DNA of 64,000 bases, taken from Longimicrobiales bacterium (GTDB lineage: Bacteria > Gemmatimonadota > Gemmatimonadetes > Longimicrobiales > Gaopeijiaceae). A program made the position numbers and the translations under genes. Shown in pieces: positions 10,656 through 22,729 of this stretch (position 1 is its first letter; the number at the start of each line of letters is the position of its first letter). Below the pieces are notes generated by a model. It did not search any database, was not told the DNA's origin, and was given only the letters and a program-made list of their open reading frames with translations. The stretch spans positions 1,856,001 to 1,920,000 of the forward strand of contig OZ242008.1 of assembly GCA_965204735.1 (NCBI GenBank). Reading direction: 5' to 3'.

Positions 10656-11908
10656 GGCGCCCGGACTCCAAGCGTGGAGCCGGGGACCGCCTCGGCACGA
10701 CCGTAACCTTGGCCATACTGGTAAGTACTGTCGGCGCTGCTGTCGGGCCTCCTGGCGAGGAGCCGCCAAGTCACGCGATCCTCCACTTCGATCACGGACG
10801 ACACGCCGATCAAGCAGCTGGGTGAAGTGTTGTTTCACTCGGACAGCGTCGATTCATCGACATCGACGAAACTCGGCAAGTTGGGAGGAGGCTTGTTTCT
10901 CAACTCGAATCTGTTCGTATACGCCGACGCCCTTGCGAGGACGCTCAACTTTGTACACGTGGATCGGCGAGAGATCGTCACGGTCGGCGGCCATGGCCAG
11001 GGGCCCGGAGAGTTTCAGGTGGTTGGTGGGGTTTTTCGAGACGGCCGGGGCAATGTGATAGTTGACGACTGGGCAGCACTGCGTGCAACAGTACTTGATC
11101 CGGACGGAAATGCGATCCGAACCATAGCTTACGACGTGTCGCCGCTCACCGGCGGTCCGGGCGTGCCCAGGGTCGTCGGGCTGACGACGACCGGCACACT
11201 GATTGTACGCGATTCCGATCCATGGGTCGTTCCGCGGCCAGATGGCTTGTATCGACCGAATGTTTGGCTCGTCACTCTCGACGTCGCCTCCCGGTCATCC
11301 CTAACAATTGCGCACGGCCAGGGTCGAGAGAGCGTGCGAATGAACCACAGTGCAGATGACGCGCACAGCTTTTCCTTCAGTACCGTGGACGTCCCGTTTG
11401 CTCATGATCTGTTCAGCGTTTTCATGACGATAAGCTGTACGTAGCCGATACGAGCAAAGACAGTGCAGTCGTCGTGAATACGGCGGGAACCGTAGTTCGA
11501 CGAATTCCCCTTCCTCCCGCAAGAATCGCATCTGAAGAGGACCTTGCATCTTGGAAAGAACAGCAGACCACAAGACTGCGGGAGCGCAACAGATCTCCGA
11601 GTTCTTTTGATGCCAGCGACCACATCAGATGGACGAGGGAAGCCACTGGCAACACCGTTGCCCCGCGAATCAGCGGCATGTTCGTGGACGTCGCAGGACG
11701 GCTGTGGATGCAGCGATACGCGATGCCAACCGATACGGCGGCTTACTGGGAGCTGTGGGACCTGAATGATCAAGTTCTATCCGCTGTGGTGAGCGTGTCC
11801 CCAGGAGACCAGCTGTTGGATGCGGCGGGCGACGTTGTCTTGACCAGCAGCACGACCGAGTTGGGGTTGACCAGCATCACAGTATGGCGGCTTGCTGGCG
11901 AGTCGTGA
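10652..11908 (+). pseudogene. Exported 6-bladed beta-propeller-like protein, split into three frames (10652-10825, ~10725-11444, ~11420-11908)
   Basis: GTG overlaps the PMM stop and is followed by a hydrophobic signal-like segment. The middle piece has GGHGQGPGEF. Restoring one T in the TTTT at 11419-11422 gives ...PFAHDLFSVFHDDKLYVADTSKDSAVVVNTAG, collinear with the downstream paralog. The C-terminal VDVAGRLWMQRY...WELWD...LLDAAGDVVL matches the paralog. Confidence 0.7.
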
Positions 11909-13167
11909 ACCACCACCGGCTCGTTCGCGTACTTGCTCTGGTCGGCGCCGTAGTCGGAGTGTCGGGGCGGGCAGGGGACCAGAGGATTGTTGAACGGCGC
12001 CTGTCCTCGCCGCCGCTCTTTGACTCGCACCTCGTCACGGATCCTGGAATGTCGGCGATTGATGCGACATCTGCGCTCTTTACAGGGAAGAATCGATTTG
12101 CAGCAGCCGGTCCGGAGCATGCGGACGCCACGCTTGTCTTTGTCGACGTGGTCGATGGATCAGTGGCGACGGTTACTGCAGAGGCGCTGGGACTTTCGGG
12201 GATCGGGGGCATGACGCTGGTGCGGGCAGGCGCCGATGGCCGAGTGGTCGCTTGGCACGGCGAGTCCTCTCAGGTCGTCACCATCTCGACAACGGGGACG
12301 GCAGTTGAGCGCATACCCCTTGGGTTGCCCGCCGGCTTTATGACGGCGCCGTGGGAACTTGCTGCACTTGGCGTCGAAGATGGGGTGGCCGTGTTGAGGC
12401 AACGGGCCATTGGGGCCGGCTTCGGCAACGTGGGCGGCATGTCGTATCGTCAACGGCTAGAGTTTTCGCTGATTCGGCCCGGTGGAGACCCGGAACCCGT
12501 CGTGCAGGTTGGGGGAGCAGAACGTGTCTATCTTGCTGTTCGCGAGGACTCCGCTCGGGGCAATGTCGAGACGGATGTGATTTTCGGTGAAACGGTTTTC
12601 AGCGCTCCACTCGGCGCCGACAAGGTGATTGTTGCGGAAACCGACGCAGATTCGATCTGGGTGCTGGACACGCAGGGCAACTACAGGCCGCTGTTGCCGA
12701 CGCCACTGCGATCGGTTGTCGTGACTGAGGATGACGTTCGAATTGAGCGGAGTCGGCTGAGGCGGCGCAATCTGATGGACCAGGAGATGGACGGTTTGAT
12801 GGACATGGTATCCGGTCGGCATCGAGAGCAACTCATGGCTCTTGATCGTGCCAGTCGCATGGCGATCGACTTGGCGCCGGTGAGTTGGACGCCGCCGGCG
12901 ATCGCAGATCTGGTGGTGGACGGGCAGTCGAGAGTGTGGCTGAAGCGGTTCGTGCCGCCGACGGATTCGGTTGCCACTTGGGAAGTATGGAACACGGAGA
13001 GACGGGTTGTTGAGTTTCGCCTGGACGCACCGCAAGAGTGGGACGTCTTGGATGCTCGCGGTGACCAGGTGCTGCTTCGCGCGGAGGGGAGTTGGGAGGC
13101 CGGGGCAGATCGTCTTGGCCGGCTGCTGGTTATGGAAATGCAGCCGGCGTCGCGGCACGACGACTGA
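11905..13167 (+). CDS. Exported beta-propeller-like protein (paralog of the upstream split gene)
   Basis: GTGA overlap with the previous stop; N-terminal signal-like RLVRVLALVGAVVGVSG; C-terminal PPAIADLVVDGQSRVWLKRF...WEVWN...VLDARGDQVLL resembles 6-bladed propeller proteins. Confidence 0.75.
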   Translation: MNHHRLVRVLALVGAVVGVSGRAGDQRIVERRLSSPPLFDSHLVTDPGMSAIDATSALFTGKNRFAAAGPEHADATLVFVDVVDGSVATVTAEALGLSGIGGMTLVRAGADGRVVAWHGESSQVVTISTTGTAVERIPLGLPAGFMTAPWELAALGVEDGVAVLRQRAIGAGFGNVGGMSYRQRLEFSLIRPGGDPEPVVQVGGAERVYLAVREDSARGNVETDVIFGETVFSAPLGADKVIVAETDADSIWVLDTQGNYRPLLPTPLRSVVVTEDDVRIERSRLRRRNLMDQEMDGLMDMVSGRHREQLMALDRASRMAIDLAPVSWTPPAIADLVVDGQSRVWLKRFVPPTDSVATWEVWNTERRVVEFRLDAPQEWDVLDARGDQVLLRAEGSWEAGADRLGRLLVMEMQPASRHDD

Positions 13168-13359
13168 CGCACTTGTCCGGGAGCGCCTTGGATTGGTGGG
13201 CTGCCCGACGGTGCACGATGGCGGACGCCCGGGCTGCGAGGTGGACGCTCGCTGGCCGGGTCGACGCCGACCGGTACGGTGATACCGTGGTACCACGACG
13301 CGGGAGGCGCGGCGGCGAGCCGCCGGACCGACGGCCAACCTTCGGCAAGCGTCGGGCCG

Positions 13360-13369
13360 AAAAAAAAAA
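13360..13369 (+). repeat. A10 homopolymer in the intergenic region upstream of the peptide operon
   Basis: gccgAAAAAAAAAAtag, directly visible and highly atypical of this GC-rich DNA. Confidence 0.85.
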
Positions 13370-13519
13370 TAGTCCCATCCAGCTATCCAAACGCCCATTT
13401 CCGGTCGCCATCATTAAGCCGTCGGTGGAAAGAACCGCCGTGATCGGGGGTTCCGCCAGCCCGCAGGGCGGGCAGCACGGCTGTCTCCCGACACCCGGAC
13501 CCAAGCGATGGAGGCGAAG

Positions 13520-14227
13520 ATGGCGAAGACGCGAACCGAACGGAGCCGTTGGCGCGCCCGCGTGGCGCGCGGTTCGACGGCAACTGGTTCCTCACACGGA
13601 GATTCGTCGCCGGCCGAAGCGCTGCGCGGTCGCTCGCCGGGGACGTTGGCGGCGATCGGCGGCCAGGGGACGGTTGCGGTTCTGGCGGGCGTGGCCTTTG
13701 CCGCCTGTGCCGGAGGCGGGCCGAACAGATCGGCGCCCCTGGACGTGGGCGACCCGGCGCCGCCGTCGCTGCAGCTGTCCGGGAGCGGACCGGCTCTGGT
13801 CTGGGCGTTCAACTCGGTGGATTGCCTGACCTGCAAGCTGGCGGAGTCGTCGTGGGTTGTCCGGCGGCTTCAACGCCGCTTCCGCGGCCTGAAGACGGTG
13901 GTGGCGGCGGTCGGACCGGGCAGTGCGTCCGATCGGGAGATGGTCGCAGGGTTCCTCGCCTCGGAGCGAATCCAAGCCACGATCCTGATGCAGACGCGGA
14001 AGGCGCACGCCGGGGAGTTCGGCGGAGGCGCGCCGCTTCCTGCGCTGTACCTGGTGGGGCGGTCGGGAACCACCGTGACGGCTGCCGTGCCCGACCCCGC
14101 TGCCCCCGGCGTTCCCGATTGGGACCGCTTCGACCTGGACGCAGTCCTGCACCGCCTCGCCCAGTCGGTCGACGCGGACGAAGAGCCGAACAGCACACAC
14201 ACAACTCGCAAGGAGAACAACCAATGA
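13520..14227 (+). CDS. Thioredoxin-fold (TlpA/redoxin-like) lipoprotein with CxxC
   Basis: GGAGG RBS before ATG 13520; lipobox-like VAVLAGVAFAAC; redoxin N-motif LDVGDPAP; beta-strand plus CxxC (LVWAFNSVDCLTC); cis-Pro-loop-like PLPALYLVGRSG. Confidence 0.7.
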   Translation: MAKTRTERSRWRARVARGSTATGSSHGDSSPAEALRGRSPGTLAAIGGQGTVAVLAGVAFAACAGGGPNRSAPLDVGDPAPPSLQLSGSGPALVWAFNSVDCLTCKLAESSWVVRRLQRRFRGLKTVVAAVGPGSASDREMVAGFLASERIQATILMQTRKAHAGEFGGGAPLPALYLVGRSGTTVTAAVPDPAAPGVPDWDRFDLDAVLHRLAQSVDADEEPNSTHTTRKENNQ

Positions 14228-14499
14228 CGAACCGAACGGAGAAGCGTGCAAAGAGAAGCCGGGCGAAGACCCTGGTGGCCGCGACGGGCTTGGCCCTGGC
14301 CGTGATTTCCGCAAGCCCGGCCGCCGGGTTCGGACCCGCGCTCGACGGGCGGGCGGAGGCTCAGTACCACGTCAAGATGAAGCTGGTGTACGGACCCTTC
14401 CAGCTCTGCGTGTGGTCGTGCTACCTGGGCCGCTGCTGCGCCTACGACAAGCCCACCTTCCCATACTGGGAGTCGGAGTTCGACGCCATGACTCGTTAG
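14224..14499 (+). CDS. Small secreted Cys-rich precursor peptide 1 (91 aa; core C-x3-C-x4-CC)
   Basis: AAGGAG RBS; ATGA overlap with the thioredoxin gene; MTNRTEKRAKRSRAKTLVAATGLALAVISASPAAG...AEA|QYHVKMKLVYGPFQLCVWSCYLGRCCAYDKPTFPYWESEFDAMTR. Confidence 0.8.
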   Translation: MTNRTEKRAKRSRAKTLVAATGLALAVISASPAAGFGPALDGRAEAQYHVKMKLVYGPFQLCVWSCYLGRCCAYDKPTFPYWESEFDAMTR

Positions 14500-14532
14500 G
14501 CTGGAGTCCCTCGCCCCATCCCTCGGGCCGGA

Positions 14533-14565
14533 GCCGCCGGACGCATATAGATAGGCGCCGGCGGT
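14533..14565 (+). terminator. GC-rich stem-loop after peptide 1 (possible partial terminator or mRNA stabiliser)
   Basis: gccgccgg-a-cgc ... gcg-ccggcggt inverted repeat followed by ctgtt. Confidence 0.45.
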
Positions 14566-14605
14566 CTGTTGCCCGTCCCCGACAGAAGCGAAGAAGGAGT
14601 CGCCG

Positions 14606-15766
14606 GTGAAGACCAACGCACCCGCAGGAAGCCGCCAGAAGACGAACGCAACCGACGTTGCCCCTCGGGCGCGTCAGCCATCAATTCCGTCTGGTCGGGT
14701 CTTCCCAGTCCTGGTCGTCGCGCTGACGCTGTCGGCCTGCGACCGGGCCGATCCTCCGTCCCCTCCGGCGACGCCCTCCGCTTCGACCTCCGAGACGCCG
14801 TCGCTCGCCGCGCTGGAGGGGGTCTTCGAGGTCGTCGGCTCTATCGAGCTGGAAGAGACCGACGAAGTGCTGACGGTCCAGCCCATGGTGACCGTCGGCG
14901 GTCCCGGCGAGCTGCTGGTCGCGGAGCCCATGGAGGGACAGGTCCGCGTGTACGGCGTGGACGGGGCGCTCCGGGCGAACCTGGGACGCAGAGGAGCAGG
15001 TCCAGGCGAGTTCGAGTTCCCGATGACGGCGCATCGGACGCTCGACGGCGGGCTGGTGGTCGCCGACGTGGGCATGTCGCGCCTGACCTTCTTGGCATCG
15101 GGCAACCCTGATTCGGTCCAGGTTGCCGATCTGCCCGACGTCGGGCTGCTCGCTGCCCAGGACATGGGCGACGGGCGCTACTTGATCGCCGGTCTCAACC
15201 GCCCGGACGGCCCGGAGGGAAGCTTCCTCCACTTCTGGAACCGAGGAACCCAGGAGTTCGAGCGGAGCTTCCTGCGCATGAGAGTTCCGGAGGAGCTCGA
15301 GGCGCTGGCCATGACGATGTCCGGCGTGGTGGCGGTAACGGAGGCCGATACCATATGGGCGGCCTGGGCCCTTTCGGACACGCTCTACAAGTACGACCTC
15401 GAGGGCAATCGCCTTGCCGCCTACCCGCTTGTCCTGCCCCGTCCGGGAAGCGGACCGCAAGGCGGCGAAGTCATCCGCGATCCCGTGTCCATGCGGGAAG
15501 AGTTCGACGCCACTACGCAGATCATGAACGTGTTCCCGCTGCGCAGCGGGAGGATCGCGGTCCAGGCCATGCAGACCCGTGGCAACGATGCGGTCTTCGA
15601 TCTCTTGATCGTCGACCGGGAAGGGAACGACCTGTGGAAGCAGGCGGGCACTCCCAGGTTGTACGTCGTCGCCGACGACGTGTTCTACTTCCAGGATCCG
15701 TCCTCGGTGCACCCCAACAAGTGGGTCGTGGCCACATTGGCCGAGCTGCCCACCAACGAGGGATAG
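14606..15766 (+). CDS. 6-bladed beta-propeller (NHL/TolB-like) lipoprotein
   Basis: GAAGGAG RBS; lipobox VLVVALTLSAC; LGRRGAGPGEFEFP blade motif; repeated DGGLVVAD/LYKYDLEGN/LLIVDREGN blade-like segments. Confidence 0.8.
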   Translation: MKTNAPAGSRQKTNATDVAPRARQPSIPSGRVFPVLVVALTLSACDRADPPSPPATPSASTSETPSLAALEGVFEVVGSIELEETDEVLTVQPMVTVGGPGELLVAEPMEGQVRVYGVDGALRANLGRRGAGPGEFEFPMTAHRTLDGGLVVADVGMSRLTFLASGNPDSVQVADLPDVGLLAAQDMGDGRYLIAGLNRPDGPEGSFLHFWNRGTQEFERSFLRMRVPEELEALAMTMSGVVAVTEADTIWAAWALSDTLYKYDLEGNRLAAYPLVLPRPGSGPQGGEVIRDPVSMREEFDATTQIMNVFPLRSGRIAVQAMQTRGNDAVFDLLIVDREGNDLWKQAGTPRLYVVADDVFYFQDPSSVHPNKWVVATLAELPTNEG

Positions 15767-15782
15767 CCGTCGAGGGCGTGAC

Positions 15783-15814
15783 GGCGCGGCCGTCCACTTC
15801 GGGGCGGCCGCGCC
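15783..15814 (+). other. Stable hairpin upstream of peptide 2 (10-bp GC stem; loop region contains cUUCGg)
   Basis: ggcgcggccg (15783-15792) pairs with cggccgcgcc (15805-15814); cttcgg at 15797-15802. Confidence 0.6.
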
Positions 15815-15848
15815 CGAACGCAGTCAACACACCCCAAGGAGCAAGACC

Positions 15849-16094
15849 ATGAGAGCACCCAAGAGAGAAACCAACAAGAGGAGCCGCGCGAGGACGGCCG
15901 TCAAGGCAGCGGGCTTCGCACTCTTCGCGCTGGCCGGAGCGCCGGCTGCCGGCGACTTTCCGCAGGCGACGCCTGCGGTCGAAGCCGCTGCCCAGCACCG
16001 GGCTGCCAAGAAAGTCGAAGGGTGGTGGATATTCGAGAGGTGCACGGGTGACTGTCCGGGTCACGGCCGGTGCTGCGGCACCTCCGTCGTGTAG
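15849..16094 (+). CDS. Small secreted Cys-rich precursor peptide 2 (81 aa; core C-x3-C-x5-CC)
   Basis: CAAGGAG RBS; MRAPKRETNKRSRARTAVKAAGFALFALAGAPAAG...VEAAA|QHRAAKKVEGWWIFERCTGDCPGHGRCCGTSVV. Confidence 0.85.
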   Translation: MRAPKRETNKRSRARTAVKAAGFALFALAGAPAAGDFPQATPAVEAAAQHRAAKKVEGWWIFERCTGDCPGHGRCCGTSVV

Positions 16095-16149
16095 CCGGGC
16101 GGCCCAAGGCGCAGACCCCAATCAATCAAGACAAGGAGAAGAGAAAGTC

Positions 16150-16395
16150 ATGAAGACAAGACAGAAGACCACTGGCCGGCGTGCTTCGATCGCAAGACTG
16201 GCAAAGGGAGGCGCGTTGGCGGCGGGGCTGCTCGCCGTCGGCCCCTTCACGGCCGAGTTCGCTGACGCTCCGAGCGTCGAGGCAACGGCCCAGCGCGTGT
16301 ACGGCGACAAAGCGGTCCTGGCGTTGTGGTCCATCGAGTGGTGCATGTTCGACTGCCCGGGAGTCGGCGCCTACTGCTGCGGCCCGGTCGCGTAG
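16150..16395 (+). CDS. Small secreted Cys-rich precursor peptide 3 (81 aa; core C-x3-C-x6-CC)
   Basis: CAAGGAG-containing leader; MKTRQKTTGRRASIARLAKGGALAAGLLAVGP...VEATA|QRVYGDKAVLALWSIEWCMFDCPGVGAYCCGPVA. Confidence 0.85.
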   Translation: MKTRQKTTGRRASIARLAKGGALAAGLLAVGPFTAEFADAPSVEATAQRVYGDKAVLALWSIEWCMFDCPGVGAYCCGPVA

Positions 16396-16429: not shown

Positions 16430-16522
16430 GCCGGCGAGTTGGCGAGGCGGCTCGCCGGCCCCTAGGGGCACCACGCGGACGCACCGGCGGATCCCCCCGC
16501 ATCGACAGTAGGGGGATCCGCC
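16430..16522. terminator. Two stem-loops between the convergent peptide 3 and bshB1 genes
   Basis: gccggcgag/ctcgccggc (16430-16459) and ggcggatccccc/gggggatccgcc (16486-16522) inverted repeats; no clear U-tract. Confidence 0.55.
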
Positions 16523-17283: not shown

Positions 17284-18567
17284 TCACTCGTAGCGCAGCG
17301 CGTCCACGGGGTCGAGCTTGGAGGCGCGCAGCGCCGGAAGGAGACCGAAGACGATCCCCGTGGCAGCGGCGAGGCCGATTGCGGCCCCGACGGACCAAAG
17401 GGGAATGCGCGCGGGAAGGGGGGTGAGGGCGGCGGCGGCGGACGACGCGCCCCATCCAACGAGCAGCCCGGCAGCGCCGCCCAGTGCGGTGAGGAACGAC
17501 GCTTCCAGGAGAAACTGCCACATGATCTCCCGGCGGGTCGCTCCCAACGCCTTTCGAACGCCGATCTCGCGAGTCCGCTCCGTGACGGAGATGAGCATGA
17601 TGCCGATCACCCCTATCCCGCCCACCAGCATCCCGATCGACGAAAGCCCGAGCATGACCGCGAAGAACATCGTCGTGAGCTGGTTGAAGAGATCCACCAT
17701 CTGCTCGGCCTTGACTGTCGCGAAGTTGTTTTCCTCGCCCGGTCCGAGGCCGCGCATCGAGCGCAGCGTGGAGACGATCTGGTGCTCGGCCTCGATCGCC
17801 GCGCCTTCCCGCGGCACCACCTGCACGCTCATGAACGTCCACCGGTCGCGTGCCTTCAGCCGCTTGTCGGCGGCGGTGTAGGGCACCACCGCGAAGTTCT
17901 CCTGAATCTCGCCGAAGTAGTTGTCGGCCAGGGAGTACACGCCGACCACCGTGAAGAGTTCGTTCGCCGCTCGCCGGCCGGCGTTCACTCGCACCCGCTT
18001 GCCGATCGGGTCGAGGTGTCCGAAGAGCACTTCCGCCAACTTCTCGGAGAGGACGACCACGGCTCGGGCCTGATTGATCTCGGCGACCGTGAAGTCCCGC
18101 CCGCTCACGAAGCCGCCCGGGGTGTACGAGGGCCATCCCGGCGACGCGCCGCGCCAGCTGACGTCGTACAGCCAATCCGACTCGAAGCGGACCGAGGCTC
18201 GGAACTCGTAGCCGGCGATTGCTTCTTCCACCGCAGGAAGGCTCTGAATGCGCCGCACCTCGCGGTTGCTGATGTCGGGCTTGTCGAACCAAGGGGGACG
18301 CCCGGATCCGTCGAAGGCCGCCCGCACGTCCGACATGTCGAAGGGCATCACCATGAAGTTGTCCGGTCCCGCGGAGTCGAACGCCGACATGACCTGGGTG
18401 CGGATCCCCGTCACGACCGCGGCGATCGTCACCACGACCCCCGTGCCGACCCCTACGCCCAGCACCGCCAAGGCGGCCCGCAGCCAGTTGGCCCGCAAGG
18501 CTTCGACCGCCACCCGCGCACCCTCCAGAAAGACCTTCCCCTTGGAACTCACCCTCTGTTCGGTCAC
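17284..18567 (-). CDS. ABC transporter permease, MacB/FtsX family
   Basis: [29 protein letters not shown] and [10 protein letters not shown] motifs; GAGGAG RBS before GTG 18567. Confidence 0.93.
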
Positions 18568-18589
18568 GATCGGCTCCTCTTTTCGCTCG

Positions 18590-19831
18590 CTACTCGTACC
18601 GAAGCGCATCGACGGGATCCAGCCTCGCCGCGCGCGCCGCCGGATAGACCCCGGACACCACGCCCACCACCAGCCCCAAGACCACTCCGAGGGCGGCCCA
18701 CTTGGGAGCCACGACGGCGGGAAGCGGCGACACCGCCCCCACCAGCACCGTGGCCGCGGACCCCGTCGCCACGCCGAAGACCGCCCCGATGCCCGACAGC
18801 GTCGCCGTCTCGATCAGCACCTGGACCAAGATGTCGCGGCGCTTGGCGCCGATCGCTTTTCGGATGCCGATCTCCCGAGTCCGCTCCATGACCGTCACCA
18901 GCATGATGTTCATGATCACGATCCCGCCCACCACCAACGAAGTGCCCACTAGGCCGGGCAGGGCGGTGAAGAGGACCGTGCTGATCCGGTTCCAGAACCC
19001 CAGGGTCCCTTCAGTCGTCTCCGCGGCGAAGTCGTTCAGGTCGCCCGGGCGGAGCCGTCGCCGGATCCGCATGATCTCCTCCGCCTCCTGCTGCAGGGGC
19101 AAGACAAGCTCCGGAGTGTTGGCCTTGATCACGATCTGGTCGACGATTCCCCGGGGGTTGGTGAAGCTCTGGACCGGCGACCGAGCGGGCGCCACGGCGA
19201 TGTTGTCGAGGGACTGTCCCAGAAACGAGCCCTGCTCTTCGAGGACGCCGACGACGCGAAAGGGGAACCCGCGAATGCGGACTTCCTTGCCCACCGGGTC
19301 CACTGCTCCGAAGAGGACGTCGGCCGTGGAGCGGCCGAGCACGACGACTGGCCTGCCTTGTTCGTCCTCGGCCTGGCTGAACACCCGTCCCTCCTCGGCG
19401 ACCCAGTTGCGGATGTTGAACATCTCGGCCGTGGCGCCCACGATCCTCACGTTCTCCACCTTGAGGCCGCTCGCCGACTCGAGCTGGCCCCCGCTGGCGG
19501 ACTGGGCGCCGACCACGGCCGGCAGCGCGACCCGCTCCCGGAGATGATCCAGATCGTCGTAGGTCAGCCTGGGCGCCCGAGCCCACGCCCGGCGCTGCTC
19601 GTCCGAGGTGTTCAGGTCGTTTCGCGGCCACCGGAGGACCGTCACCGTGTTGACGCCGATGAAGCTCTCGACGAGAGTCGTCCGCATGTAGCGGTCCACG
19701 CCCTCCACGATGCTCACGACGAGGACGAGGAACATCACGCCCACGATCACGCCCAGCAGGCTGAAGAAGCTCTTGAGCTTCTGGGTGCGGATCTGCTCCG
19801 TGGCCAGCCGGACTCCTTCGAGCGTCTTCAT
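18590..19831 (-). CDS. ABC transporter permease, MacB/FtsX family
   Basis: [29 protein letters not shown] and [10 protein letters not shown] motifs. Confidence 0.93.
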
Positions 19832-19839
19832 GGCCCGGG

Positions 19840-21150
19840 TCAGTTGCCGCCGTCGGCGCCGTCGCCCTCGTCCTCGTCCGGGTCGGAGGCCCGGATTCGG
19901 TCGCCGTCCTCGAGCGTCCGCACGATCTGATAGGGGCCGCTCACCACCGTGTCTCCCTCGGCCAAGCCGGACAGCACCTCGAAGTACTCCTGACCCGCGA
20001 TGCCGATCTCCACGGCCATGAACGTCGCGCTGCCGTCGCGCACGACGTACGCTCCCTCGACTTCCACGGGCGCGTCCGCCGCCTTGTCGTCGCCGGTCGG
20101 GAAGGCGGCGCCGGAGGTTCCGGACGCGCCCGCGGTCGCCGCCGAGTCCGGGGACAGCTCCCTGACCGTCAGAGCGATGATGGGGATGCTCAGCGCGTCG
20201 TCGCGAGTGGCCGTCACCAAGTCCGCGGTCGCCGACAGGTCGGGGCGAAGCTCGACCCCCGGGTTCCGGAGCGTGACCACCACCTCGAAGTCGATCGTCG
20301 GCGTCTGCCCAGTGCCGGCCGACGCGGAGGGCGACCTGATGGCGCTGTTGCCGATCTCGGTGACCACGCCGGCAAAGTCGCGGTCGGGGAAGGCGTCCAG
20401 CTCCACCGTGGCGCTGTCCCCGAGCTGAATGCCGGGCACGTCGGTCTCGTCGACCTCCAGCACCACCTCCATCACGGACAGGTCCGAGACGGTGAGCACC
20501 AAGCTGCCCGGGTTGTTCATCGTTCCCACGATGACCGTCTCGCCTTCCTCCACGTTCAGGCGCGTGACCCGGCCGGCCATCGGCGCCCGGATGATCGTCT
20601 TGGAGACGTTGTCGCGGGATTCCTCCACCGCCGCCTGGGACTGGCTCACCCCGTACTCGGCCGACTCCAGAAGCGACCGCTGAACTTCTTCCTGGGTCTG
20701 GGCGTTCTCCACGTCCTGCAAGCTGACGAGCAGCGAGTCCCGCGCCCGAAGGTCTGCCAGCCGCTGCGCGTCCCGCTGCGCCTGAAGGTAGTTGGCCCGA
20801 GCCTGCGCCACTTGGGCCTGGGCCTGAAGCAGCGCGGCTTGGCTTCGGCTCAGGCTCGCCTGGAAGCGCGTGGGGTCGAGGCGGAGAAGCACCTGCCCTT
20901 CGGTCACCTCCTCGCCTTCCTCCACCAGCATCTCCGTGACCCGCGCCGAAATGTCGGAGCTGATGTCCACCTTGCGCCGCGCCCGCACGTTGCCGCTGGC
21001 CGTCACCGTCTCGACCAGGTTTCTCCTCTCGATTCCTTCGATCCGGGCGCTGGTCCCCGTCGCTCGGGAGCCGTTGGAGCCGAGGACCGCCGCAGTTGCA
21101 AAGAGGGCGACGACGCCGGTTCCGACGATGACCTTGGTTCTGGTTCGCAT
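19840..21150 (-). CDS. Efflux periplasmic adaptor (MacA/HlyD family)
   Basis: Lipoyl half-motifs VEEGEEVTEGQVLLRLD and IRAPMAGRV, coiled coil, EVLSGLAEGDTVV. Confidence 0.93.
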   Translation of the reverse strand: MRTRTKVIVGTGVVALFATAAVLGSNGSRATGTSARIEGIERRNLVETVTASGNVRARRKVDISSDISARVTEMLVEEGEEVTEGQVLLRLDPTRFQASLSRSQAALLQAQAQVAQARANYLQAQRDAQRLADLRARDSLLVSLQDVENAQTQEEVQRSLLESAEYGVSQSQAAVEESRDNVSKTIIRAPMAGRVTRLNVEEGETVIVGTMNNPGSLVLTVSDLSVMEVVLEVDETDVPGIQLGDSATVELDAFPDRDFAGVVTEIGNSAIRSPSASAGTGQTPTIDFEVVVTLRNPGVELRPDLSATADLVTATRDDALSIPIIALTVRELSPDSAATAGASGTSGAAFPTGDDKAADAPVEVEGAYVVRDGSATFMAVEIGIAGQEYFEVLSGLAEGDTVVSGPYQIVRTLEDGDRIRASDPDEDEGDGADGGN

Positions 21151-21157
21151 GGTGTCC

Positions 21158-22729
21158 TCAGGGGTTCCTTATAGGGGCGCCGACCACGGCCTCCAAGTCG
21201 GCGACTGCGTCGTGATAGGTGAAGACGGCGAGAACCCGGGCCCGGTCGGCTCTGGCCTTGACCGTTTCCGCCTCCGCCAACTCGATGAAGCTGGAGATCC
21301 CCAGCCGGTACCGCTCCCTGGCCAAGCGAAGCTGTTCGTCCGCGAGCGCTTGGTTCCGTTCCTCGATCACGGCCGTCTCGTAGGCCGTCCGCACGATCGC
21401 CAGGCGCGACTCCACGTCGGCCCGCAGGGCGAGCTCCTGCTCGCGCAGCTGATGGCGGCTGTCCGAGAGCCGGGCCTTCGCCGCCTCCACGTTCTGCTGC
21501 CGGGAGAGGCCCTGGAAGACAGGCACCGACACCGTAAGCCCCGCCGACGGGGGCGAGTTCGTGAAGCTGAAGGGAAAGGCGTTGTTCTGGTCCCGGATCG
21601 CCTGGATCGCCGCGTCCGGGGTGGCAAGCCGGGAGCAGTTCTGGGGAGGCAGAGGGTCGGCCAGCCGGGCCGTCAGGTCGTTCAGCGTCTGGCACTGGCG
21701 GATCGCCGCCTGCCCCTGGGCGATCGCCTGGGCCTCCTGGCTGGCGGTGTTGCTCGCTTGGCGGGTGAAGCCGCTGAACCCGGTCGTGAGGGAGATCGAC
21801 GGGTAGTAGGAAGACCTGGCCATGCGCACGCCGTATCGGGCCGATTCCTCCGTCGCCCGCAGGGACCGCAGCCCGGGGTTGTCGCCGAGGGCGGACTCGT
21901 AGAGGTCGCGCGCGCTCCAGCTCGGCTCGGCAACCACGAAGGTCGTCGCCAACGACGGCTCCGCCGCCAACTCCACGCCCATCTGCTGAAGGAGCCTGAT
22001 CCGGGCGGTCCGAACCCCGGTCCGGGACTGGAGCACCGAGACCTGGGCCCTTCCCACGGCGACTTCGGCCTGCTGCACGTCGATGGCGTTGCCCGACCCC
22101 ACTTCCAGTCTTCCCTGGGCCAGCCGCAGGTCGATCTGCGCCCTCTCCATCTCCCGCTCGGAGAGGTTGAGCTCCTCGATCTGCCGCAGCACCTCCAGAT
22201 ACGCCTTGGTCACCCCCAGGCGAAGGCTCGCCTCCGCGACGCTCACCTGGGCGCGGGTGGCGTCTCGGTCGCGCTTGGCCTGTCCCGGGGCCAGGAGGGT
22301 TCGCCCGTCCATGGAGTAGCTGAAGCCCACGTTGTACGAGCTGAAGTAGAAGGAGGGCTGGTCCTGGAACCCCAGCTGCTCGGCGGTGATGCTGCCGAAG
22401 CGCTGCTCTCCCGCGCCCTGCCAGGAGAGGCTGGAGCTCGCCGACGCCGACGGCAGCCAGGAGGCGTAGGCGGATCGGACGTTCCAGTCGGCGACGGGCA
22501 CGTCGTTGCGGGCGACCTGCACCGCAGGGTTGTTGCGAAGGGCGACCTGCAGGGCGTCTTCAAGGGTCAGCGACGCGGGGACCTGCTCGCGGCCCGGGAC
22601 GGGCTGGCCTGCCGCGGGACGGAGAAGTCCGGCCGACAGCCCGGCGAGCACGAAGGCCGTCGCGAGCAAGGCGCCCGCCCCTCCACTTCGGATTGCGTTT
22701 CGGCTGTATGCCGCAGGACGGTATGACAT
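21158..22729 (-). CDS. TolC family outer membrane efflux protein
   Basis: AAGGAG RBS before ATG 22729; signal peptide; LTLEDALQVALRNNP and ERYRLGISSFIEL motifs. Confidence 0.92.
   Translation of the reverse strand: MSYRPAAYSRNAIRSGGAGALLATAFVLAGLSAGLLRPAAGQPVPGREQVPASLTLEDALQVALRNNPAVQVARNDVPVADWNVRSAYASWLPSASASSSLSWQGAGEQRFGSITAEQLGFQDQPSFYFSSYNVGFSYSMDGRTLLAPGQAKRDRDATRAQVSVAEASLRLGVTKAYLEVLRQIEELNLSEREMERAQIDLRLAQGRLEVGSGNAIDVQQAEVAVGRAQVSVLQSRTGVRTARIRLLQQMGVELAAEPSLATTFVVAEPSWSARDLYESALGDNPGLRSLRATEESARYGVRMARSSYYPSISLTTGFSGFTRQASNTASQEAQAIAQGQAAIRQCQTLNDLTARLADPLPPQNCSRLATPDAAIQAIRDQNNAFPFSFTNSPPSAGLTVSVPVFQGLSRQQNVEAAKARLSDSRHQLREQELALRADVESRLAIVRTAYETAVIEERNQALADEQLRLARERYRLGISSFIELAEAETVKARADRARVLAVFTYHDAVADLEAVVGAPIRNP

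Follow-up and report, generated by a model that had tools for sequence, protein, structure and literature searches.

A conserved peptide, propeller and redoxin module encoding putative exported four-cysteine peptides in a Gemmatimonadota genome

Results

Three paralogous precursor genes in a Longimicrobiales genome

We analyzed a 64,000-nucleotide stretch of DNA (the window; positions 1,856,001 to 1,920,000 of contig OZ242008.1, GenBank assembly GCA_965204735.1), which is part of the complete genome (4.14 Mb, 69% G+C) of a Longimicrobiales bacterium of the phylum Gemmatimonadota. Our subject is a group of three small genes, P1, P2 and P3, whose products carry four cysteines in a C-terminal core, together with two adjoining lipoprotein genes: one encodes a thioredoxin-fold protein (here called the redoxin), and its stop codon overlaps the start of P1, while the other encodes an NHL-type propeller and lies between P1 and P2 (Table 1). 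An AAGGAG sequence precedes the ATG of each peptide gene by 8–11 nt, and the G+C content at third codon positions (0.77–0.87) is similar to that of the adjoining genes.

Table 1 Features of the locus, in window coordinates
Feature	Coordinates	Strand	Size	Remarks
Redoxin lipoprotein, thioredoxin fold	13508–14227	+	239 aa	Lipobox Cys67; CLTC motif at 106–109
P1 precursor	14224–14499	+	91 aa	AAGGAG at 14210–14215; basic N-terminus, hydrophobic stretch, A-E-A then Q47
Propeller lipoprotein, six-bladed NHL type	14606–15766	+	386 aa	Lipobox LSAC, Cys45
GC-rich hairpin	15783–15814	+	13-bp stem	Between propeller gene and P2; z-score −2.9; 1 of 200 shuffles folds equally well
P2 precursor	15849–16094	+	81 aa	AAGGAG at 15836–15841; A-A-A then Q49; strand VEGWWIFER
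P3 precursor	16150–16395	+	81 aa	AAGGAG at 16133–16138; A-T-A then Q48
GC-rich hairpin	16430–16459	+	12-bp stem	3′ of P3; z-score −1.9; 6 of 200 shuffles fold equally well

Translation and alignment place the cysteines in the arrangement C62-x3-C66-x4-C71C72 in P1, where a 19-residue tail follows, C65-x3-C69-x5-C75C76 in P2 and C65-x3-C69-x6-C76C77 in P3. These positions, the glutamines marked ahead of them (Q47, Q49 and Q48, respectively), the motifs KRSRA (residues 10–14) and PAAG (residues 32–35) shared by P1 and P2, and the second loops of 4, 5 and 6 residues are all as an original prediction, made from this DNA alone, had given them. The prediction had also described the precursors as paralogous, and BLASTP comparison is significant for both pairs concerned (1e-8 for P2/P3 and 2e-6 for P1/P2); P1, P2 and P3 are genuine paralogous genes. 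P1 and P3 are nested in longer mechanical open reading frames (ORFs; 13549–14499 and 16048–16395), as had been pointed out. The accompanying warning that automated annotation may miss the peptides did not hold: the exact proteins of 91, 81 and 81 aa are present in a public gene-call collection that has NCBI among its sources.

The peptide genes are part of a conserved three-part module

We compiled 25 peptide-anchored loci: the window itself, four others in its genus and 20 taken from 401 genomes that sample the phylum evenly. The propeller gene adjoins the peptide genes in all 25, and a gene for a CxxC thioredoxin-fold lipoprotein is adjacent in 24, the exception being the second locus of one genome. 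Each locus carries one to three peptide genes in tandem. What lies in the window is one copy of a conserved peptide/propeller/redoxin module rather than a set of stand-alone toxin genes; that the peptides form such a module with the two flanking lipoprotein genes had been missed in the original prediction. We found no description of such a module in the literature searched.

A redoxin-based search of the same 401 genomes returned 31 genomes and added 12 redoxin-anchored loci. The propeller gene is adjacent in 11 of these, and in the same 11 a small signal-bearing cysteine-rich ORF, judged by eye, lies beside the propeller, six-cysteine variants included. The peptide profile (E ≤ 0.01) catches only 6 of the 12, and one of these six, a match some 2 kb away on the other strand, is probably false. 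The twelfth locus (L086) has neither propeller nor peptide and probably represents an unrelated redoxin.

The six-cysteine variants, which the peptide profile misses, have an additional cysteine ahead of the frame and, following the CC pair, a C-x2-C; they stand beside a propeller and redoxin pair at four loci from other families of the same class (L078, L080, L081 and L082). At another locus, the second one of genome G256, a signal-bearing ORF of 65 aa with three CC pairs in a different pattern (L085:8992–9189) lies about 1 kb from the module copy.

The four-cysteine frame is retained across genera and families

We scanned all six frames of the 4.14 Mb genome for C-x3-C-x3-8-CC lying no more than 25 residues from a stop; of the 25 matches, only P1, P2 and P3 combine the motif with a signal-like leader. 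The scan also drew attention to an ORF outside the window (near G000:C1 3777783, minus strand) with a cysteine-rich tail of a different pattern, holding more than 10 cysteines in its last 50 residues.

Homologues that retain the cysteine pattern were found in all three other searched genomes of the genus, with two peptide copies each, and, within the phylum sample, in further genera and families. The pattern is therefore far beyond chance. Among the 401 sampled genomes, 29 had a match to the peptide profile at E ≤ 1e-3, and we set seven of them aside: six matches lay in open frames of 289–724 aa and the seventh (G316) in one of 100 aa, and these matches, which cover at most model positions 3–70, are probably signal-peptide look-alikes. 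The remaining 22 genomes include 16 of the 24 belonging to genus g52 and four of another family. Across family f1, the peptides are present in 20 of the 70 sampled genomes. A profile built from nine sequences retrieved 14 proteins from a collection of 5.8 billion sequences, the window's own P1 and P2 among them, and 24 representatives (E ≤ 1e-3) from a library of 1.84 billion, with the cysteine frame kept in every sequence retrieved from either collection.

In an alignment of 61 sequences, Met1 and the four cysteines are the only invariant positions (61/61). The frame takes the form C-x3-5-C-x4-9-CC in seven spacing combinations, exactly four cysteines follow residue 35 in 59 of the 61 sequences, and peptide subtypes, such as the P2-like GWWIF..C..CPG.G.CCG, recur across genera. 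No Pfam or NCBIfam model matches the peptides, a profile search of the PDB gave weak matches only (E ≥ 0.045, to signal or membrane segments of exported proteins), and the ESM Atlas returned no usable match. Fused or longer forms of the peptides were not found either, which is a weak indication at best. The AlphaFold2 model of P2 from the 61 sequences reached a predicted local distance difference test (pLDDT) of 56.5; a helix (residues 8–29) and a hairpin (residues 54–66) alone are visible, and the model is too poor for a fold search.

The likeness to a conotoxin framework that had been noted for these peptides, as an analogy, stands for the C-C-CC order of the cysteines. It is a likeness of pattern only, in a bacterium, with an unrelated signal region and no match to a family model.

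Purifying selection acts on all parts of the precursor

We estimated the ratio of nonsynonymous to synonymous substitution rates (dN/dS) from 13 pairs with at least 60% identity, which are not independent of each other. The values were 0.34 for the signal region, 0.26 for the linker, 0.38 for the strand before the first cysteine, 0.27 for the cysteine loops and 0.76 for the tail, and thus point to purifying selection throughout. Within clusters of 90% identity, 23 of 109 mature sites vary, compared to 16 of 144 leader sites (Fisher p = 0.035).

These results bear on the proposal that the family shows the pattern of diversifying toxins or ligands, for which a comparison of leader and core dN/dS had been suggested. 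The family does have a leader and an invariant four-cysteine frame, and its mature part is about twice as variable among near-identical variants, but dN/dS is close to 0.3 in both leader and core, and the subtypes are kept across genera. The hypervariability of the core is thus modest, positive or strong diversifying selection lacks support, and the proposed pattern is weakly supported.

Precursors carry features of Sec signal peptides

Across the 61 sequences, the n-region has a median net charge of +6 and is followed by a hydrophobic block of 14 alignment columns (columns 31–44) that ends with a proline in 58. Alanine, valine or leucine occupies position −3 in 51 sequences, and alanine occupies position −1, directly before the marked glutamine, in 53. 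The precursors thus show a positive n-region, a hydrophobic h-region and small residues at −3 and −1, as expected of substrates of Sec and signal peptidase I. We read the A-x-A before the glutamine as a cleavage site because, in distant members, the same A-x-A closes a signal peptide of ordinary length. The proposal that the core begins at the marked glutamine fits this conserved A-x-A, and cleavage there would release mature peptides of 45, 33 and 34 residues from P1, P2 and P3, respectively. The distance from the glutamine to the first cysteine is tightly kept at 15–18 residues. Alternatively, the N-terminus may serve as an uncleaved membrane anchor. Export by the twin-arginine translocation (Tat) route was rejected, given that a Tat-like motif occurs in 7 of 61 sequences and an RR pair in 22 of 61, with none in P1 and P2.

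The redoxin resembles extracytoplasmic thiol-disulfide oxidoreductases

Cys67, Cys106 and Cys109 of the redoxin are invariant in all 20 homologues compared, and the CxxC motif is present in 23 of 23. The AlphaFold2 model of its core (residues 71–200) has a pLDDT of 83–96, and the best Foldseek matches in the PDB are extracytoplasmic thiol-disulfide oxidoreductases (2b5x, 1lu4, 3gl3, ResA, SdbA and CcmG, with the DsbE class also named) at E-values from 4.5e-6 to 8e-5. The redoxin profile matches ResA at E = 0.004. On the basis of the modelled fold, the protein belongs to the TlpA/ResA/DsbE class and would act outside the cytoplasm. No Pfam or NCBIfam model matches the window copy at threshold, and one of the 20 homologues has a weak match to AhpC-TSA (E = 0.011). 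The redoxin gene is single-copy in the host genome, which also encodes DsbA-like genes, a VKOR and two DsbD/CcdA-like genes; DsbB was not found there.

The propeller lipoprotein and its modelled contact with P2

The propeller profile matches the NHL domains of TRIM71, TRIM2 and Thin at E-values around 1e-25, and the single sequence does so at 6e-12. PF17170 (DUF5128), which some propeller homologues carry, scores 17.1 bits on the window propeller against a gathering cut-off of 22.9 and so stays below it. Cys45 is nearly invariant, and the closest named homologues come from metagenome-assembled genomes of Gemmatimonadetes. A second full-length propeller paralogue, matching the profile at E = 7e-86, lies outside the window (G000:C1:3352062–3353114); it is an orphan, with no redoxin or cysteine-rich peptide gene nearby.

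We modelled a complex of propeller residues 66–386 (alignment of 30 rows) with P2 residues 36–81 (alignment of 61 rows). The interaction prediction score from aligned errors (ipSAE) was 0.83, 0.85 and 0.80 in three runs, whereas the best of three controls scored 0.02, and at least 69% of the contacts agree between runs. Of 157 solved complexes, 116 reach the score mark used, as do 2 of 215 mismatched pairs; these counts hold only roughly here given our own alignments. Within the complex, the pLDDT of the peptide is only 48–61. Its confident contacts comprise residues 47–49, 51–52 and 56–64, which correspond to the A-A-Q and to the aromatic strand that precedes the first cysteine. On the propeller side they are spread over several blades and consist mostly of Met, Leu and Phe, with M109, M140, M236, M238, M307 and M322 making the face rich in methionine. 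The contact residues of the propeller are less conserved (mean 0.47) than the remainder of the protein (0.63). Overall, the model supports binding of the aromatic strand of the peptide to a face of the propeller.

Surroundings of the module and other features of the locus

In family f1, the module is flanked by a phosphoglucomutase-type gene (nuoN-pgm) on one side and by bshB1 followed by MacB-MacB-HlyD-OEP on the other, whereas its flanks in family f7 consist of unrelated genes. The flanks thus differ between families, so that the conserved unit is the trio of peptide, propeller and redoxin genes and the neighbouring efflux pump is no evidence of function. Within the window, the pump genes (two for MacB/FtsX-type permeases, one for an HlyD-type adaptor and one for OEP) follow bshB1 on the minus strand at 17284–21982, an arrangement that is syntenic across f1 and absent beside the module in f7. 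We rejected a functional link of the module to this pump, since the flank is common to f1 only. Pfam scans of the window flanks and of 48 flanking proteins from eight other loci contained no modifying enzyme of a known class of peptides that are made on ribosomes and modified after translation (RiPPs).

Between the phosphoglucomutase-type gene and the module, a region of lower G+C content (10656–13500; 0.63–0.65 compared to about 0.70) looks like an insertion, because the redoxin gene directly follows the mutase gene in two sister genomes. It holds two paralogous ORFs without a known family, one at 11884–13167 (427 aa) and the other apparently split (10827–11444 and 11474–11908); their C-terminal parts share 37% identity (E = 2e-10), and a motif of the GPGEF type may point to a distant propeller. 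Elsewhere, rve-type and phage-type integrase genes directly adjoin the module in one genome (L058:4877–7896), and the second module copy of another genome (L017) sits in a low-GC region. Both contexts hint at occasional mobility.

The hairpin between the propeller gene and P2 may be a terminator, attenuator or processing site, and the one 3′ of P3 is probably the end of the transcription unit; a consensus terminator scan gave no match at the latter. A hairpin 3′ of P1 was insignificant (z −1.3). Scans for sigma-70 promoters returned no promoter-like sites, and those for terminators returned four terminator-like sites compared to 2.3 expected, none of them convincing.

Discussion

Building upon these findings, we tentatively interpret P1, P2 and P3 as precursors of small exported four-cysteine peptides within a three-part envelope module, in which the peptides would be stapled by disulfides, matured by the redoxin on the propeller and possibly bacteriocin-like. 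We hold this interpretation with a confidence that stays somewhat short of even. The basic and hydrophobic N-terminus would act as a Sec signal peptide, and signal peptidase I would cut after A-x-A and release peptides with glutamine as first residue. In the periplasm, the aromatic strand before the cysteines would dock on the hydrophobic, Met-rich face of the propeller, as the complex model predicts. The TlpA/ResA-like lipoprotein would then set the redox state of the four cysteines, in the simplest case by introducing or shuffling two disulfides as staples of the C-terminal loops. As the weakest step, and by analogy, the stapled peptides might be accessory competition factors comparable to bacteroidetocins, with the propeller as an escort that perhaps also protects the producer. 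An accessory function in competition would fit the patchy distribution in close relatives, the tandem divergent copies, the greater variation of the mature part among near-identical variants and the variable contact surface of the propeller.

Bacteroidetocins are class IIf bacteriocins of Bacteroidales, toxins of 42 aa with four cysteines for which a thiol oxidoreductase of the cluster is needed for full activity of the secreted toxin (PMC6671954). The same source describes a double-glycine leader of 15 residues, a peptidase-domain ABC transporter and a protein with five transmembrane segments (PMC6671954). Both systems have small peptides in a bacterium with two membranes, four cysteines in a mature part of about 40 residues (a length predicted in our case), a thiol oxidoreductase gene in the cluster (24 of 25 loci here), an accessory nature and several variants. 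The module differs from them in its Sec-like leader and propeller lipoprotein: it has no double-glycine leader and no conserved peptidase ABC transporter, the flanking MacB/FtsX-type permeases, HlyD and OEP being confined to family f1, and no sequence similarity was found. A further parallel is offered by TMcins of Gram-positive bacteria, whose precursors have a membrane-spanning segment and whose cluster encodes a CxxC oxidoreductase, TmcD, that forms a disulfide needed for activity (PMC13712780). The membrane-spanning segment of the precursor and the private CxxC oxidoreductase are alike in our module, whereas TMcins keep the transmembrane helix in the product, have one disulfide and a DsbA-like TmcD with CPHC, and lack a propeller partner (PMC13712780). 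The literature that we searched describes no counterpart in which a Sec signal is combined with a propeller lipoprotein as partner.

A related gene neighbourhood occurs in Bacteroidales, where small NVEALA proteins (PF14055) are neighbours of DUF5128 propellers, again a small exported protein beside a six-bladed propeller of the DUF5128 type; we found no paper on it. PF14055 matched none of nine members of our peptide family at E ≤ 10, and it had no matches in the host genome, but 14 control genomes gave none either, which leaves the genome search uninformative.

Several observations weigh against the proposed maturation and competition role. The stretch from the proline or hydrophobic block to A-x-A measures 10–17 residues, which is unusually long for a signal peptidase I site, and the A-x-A-Q lies within the modelled propeller interface, so that its conservation could reflect binding instead of cleavage. 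The peptide by itself folds poorly, and one propeller would need to serve up to three different peptides. Whether the redoxin acts as an oxidase or a reductase cannot be read from its sequence; many proteins of the TlpA/ResA/CcmG class are reductants, and with DsbA-like, VKOR and DsbD/CcdA-like genes in the host a private oxidase is not obviously needed. Flank scans revealed neither an outer-membrane export route nor a peptidase conserved with the module. Moreover, a dN/dS of about 0.3 and subtypes kept across genera fit a conserved function better than an arms race.

The main alternative reading is a resident thiol-redox unit of the envelope. NHLRC2 of animals and SOQ1 of the plant thylakoid lumen fuse a thioredoxin-like domain to a six-bladed NHL propeller, and we know of no substrate of such thioredoxin-NHL proteins. 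The propeller and the redoxin could be their split counterpart, with the mini-proteins as clients or sensors that would remain in the periplasm and not be secreted: a TlpA-like thioredoxin fold is likewise paired with an NHL propeller outside the cytoplasm, in nearly every locus, both partners are lipoproteins, the model supports contact between peptide and propeller, selection is purifying in all parts of the peptide, and export genes are not conserved with the module. The module nevertheless consists of two separate lipoproteins and small cysteine-rich peptide genes, its similarity to NHLRC2 and SOQ1 is limited to generic NHL and thioredoxin folds, and the 14 PDB sequences that the propeller profile matches include no chain of either protein, nor do the redoxin Foldseek matches listed. 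A patchy distribution in close relatives and a variable copy number would also be odd for a housekeeping redox role, and a module that is single-copy in the host genome is not a general system. Taken together, we regard such a unit as unlikely, though as the strongest of the alternatives.

We give a still lower probability to the peptides being small subunits in a periplasmic enzyme or binding complex built on the propeller. In methylamine dehydrogenase, which provides the example, the light subunit MauA is rich in cysteine, the heavy subunit MauB is a propeller, and a thioredoxin-like protein, MauD, serves as biogenesis factor. Components of these three kinds occur together here as well, and the modelled interface on the propeller face is of high confidence. 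Yet no Pfam or NCBIfam model reaches its own threshold for any of the three proteins, the Pfam families of the methylamine dehydrogenase light and heavy subunits are not among the matches of the peptides or the propeller, and, with the four cysteines alone invariant, there is no invariant aromatic residue to carry a quinone cofactor. The presence of up to three different peptides per propeller, and hydrophobic, variable propeller contacts in place of conserved polar ones, also speak against a subunit of this kind.

Handling of metals appears very improbable to us; on this reading, Cu, Zn or Hg would be bound by four reduced cysteines, whose reduced state the redoxin would maintain, with a contribution from the Met-rich face of the propeller. 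The reading draws on the four invariant cysteines with their CC pair, the Met-rich modelled contacts, a MerC-domain gene that adjoins one of the ten flank-scanned loci, and the fact that TlpA-class proteins reduce the cysteines of copper sites. The residues between the cysteines are highly variable, however, with seven spacing combinations, no metal transporter or regulator is conserved nearby, and the methionine positions are not conserved. Finally, spurious ORFs are common in high-GC DNA, with 52 ORFs of 30 aa or longer overlapping these 5 kb, but the view that P1–P3 are chance reading frames has practically no probability left and is already refuted by conservation, given a ribosome-binding site on each gene, a cysteine frame kept across genera and families, dN/dS below 1 and retained synteny.

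The exported, disulfide-stapled peptides that we favour have a precedent in bacteriocins of gut Bacteroidales, which are likewise small, exported and rich in disulfides and have a private thiol oxidoreductase. The module recurs in a poorly studied phylum, and its peptides and redoxin are without any curated family match. The complex model offers a concrete, testable contact in the form of the predicted placement of the aromatic strand on the propeller face. Active peptides would provide compact, disulfide-stapled scaffolds from a new source, and peptides that serve as redox clients would offer a way into the function of thioredoxin-NHL proteins. A bolder conjecture, which we consider improbable at present, takes the module for a hitherto undescribed envelope machine that handles peptides, in which the NHL propeller lipoprotein is a peptide-binding scaffold that works with its private TlpA-like redoxin on dedicated four-cysteine mini-proteins. 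If this conjecture were true, the mini-proteins would be the first natural clients of a thioredoxin-NHL pairing that is conserved in bacteria, plants (SOQ1) and animals (NHLRC2), and they would constitute a new Sec-dependent class of disulfide-stapled bacterial peptides.

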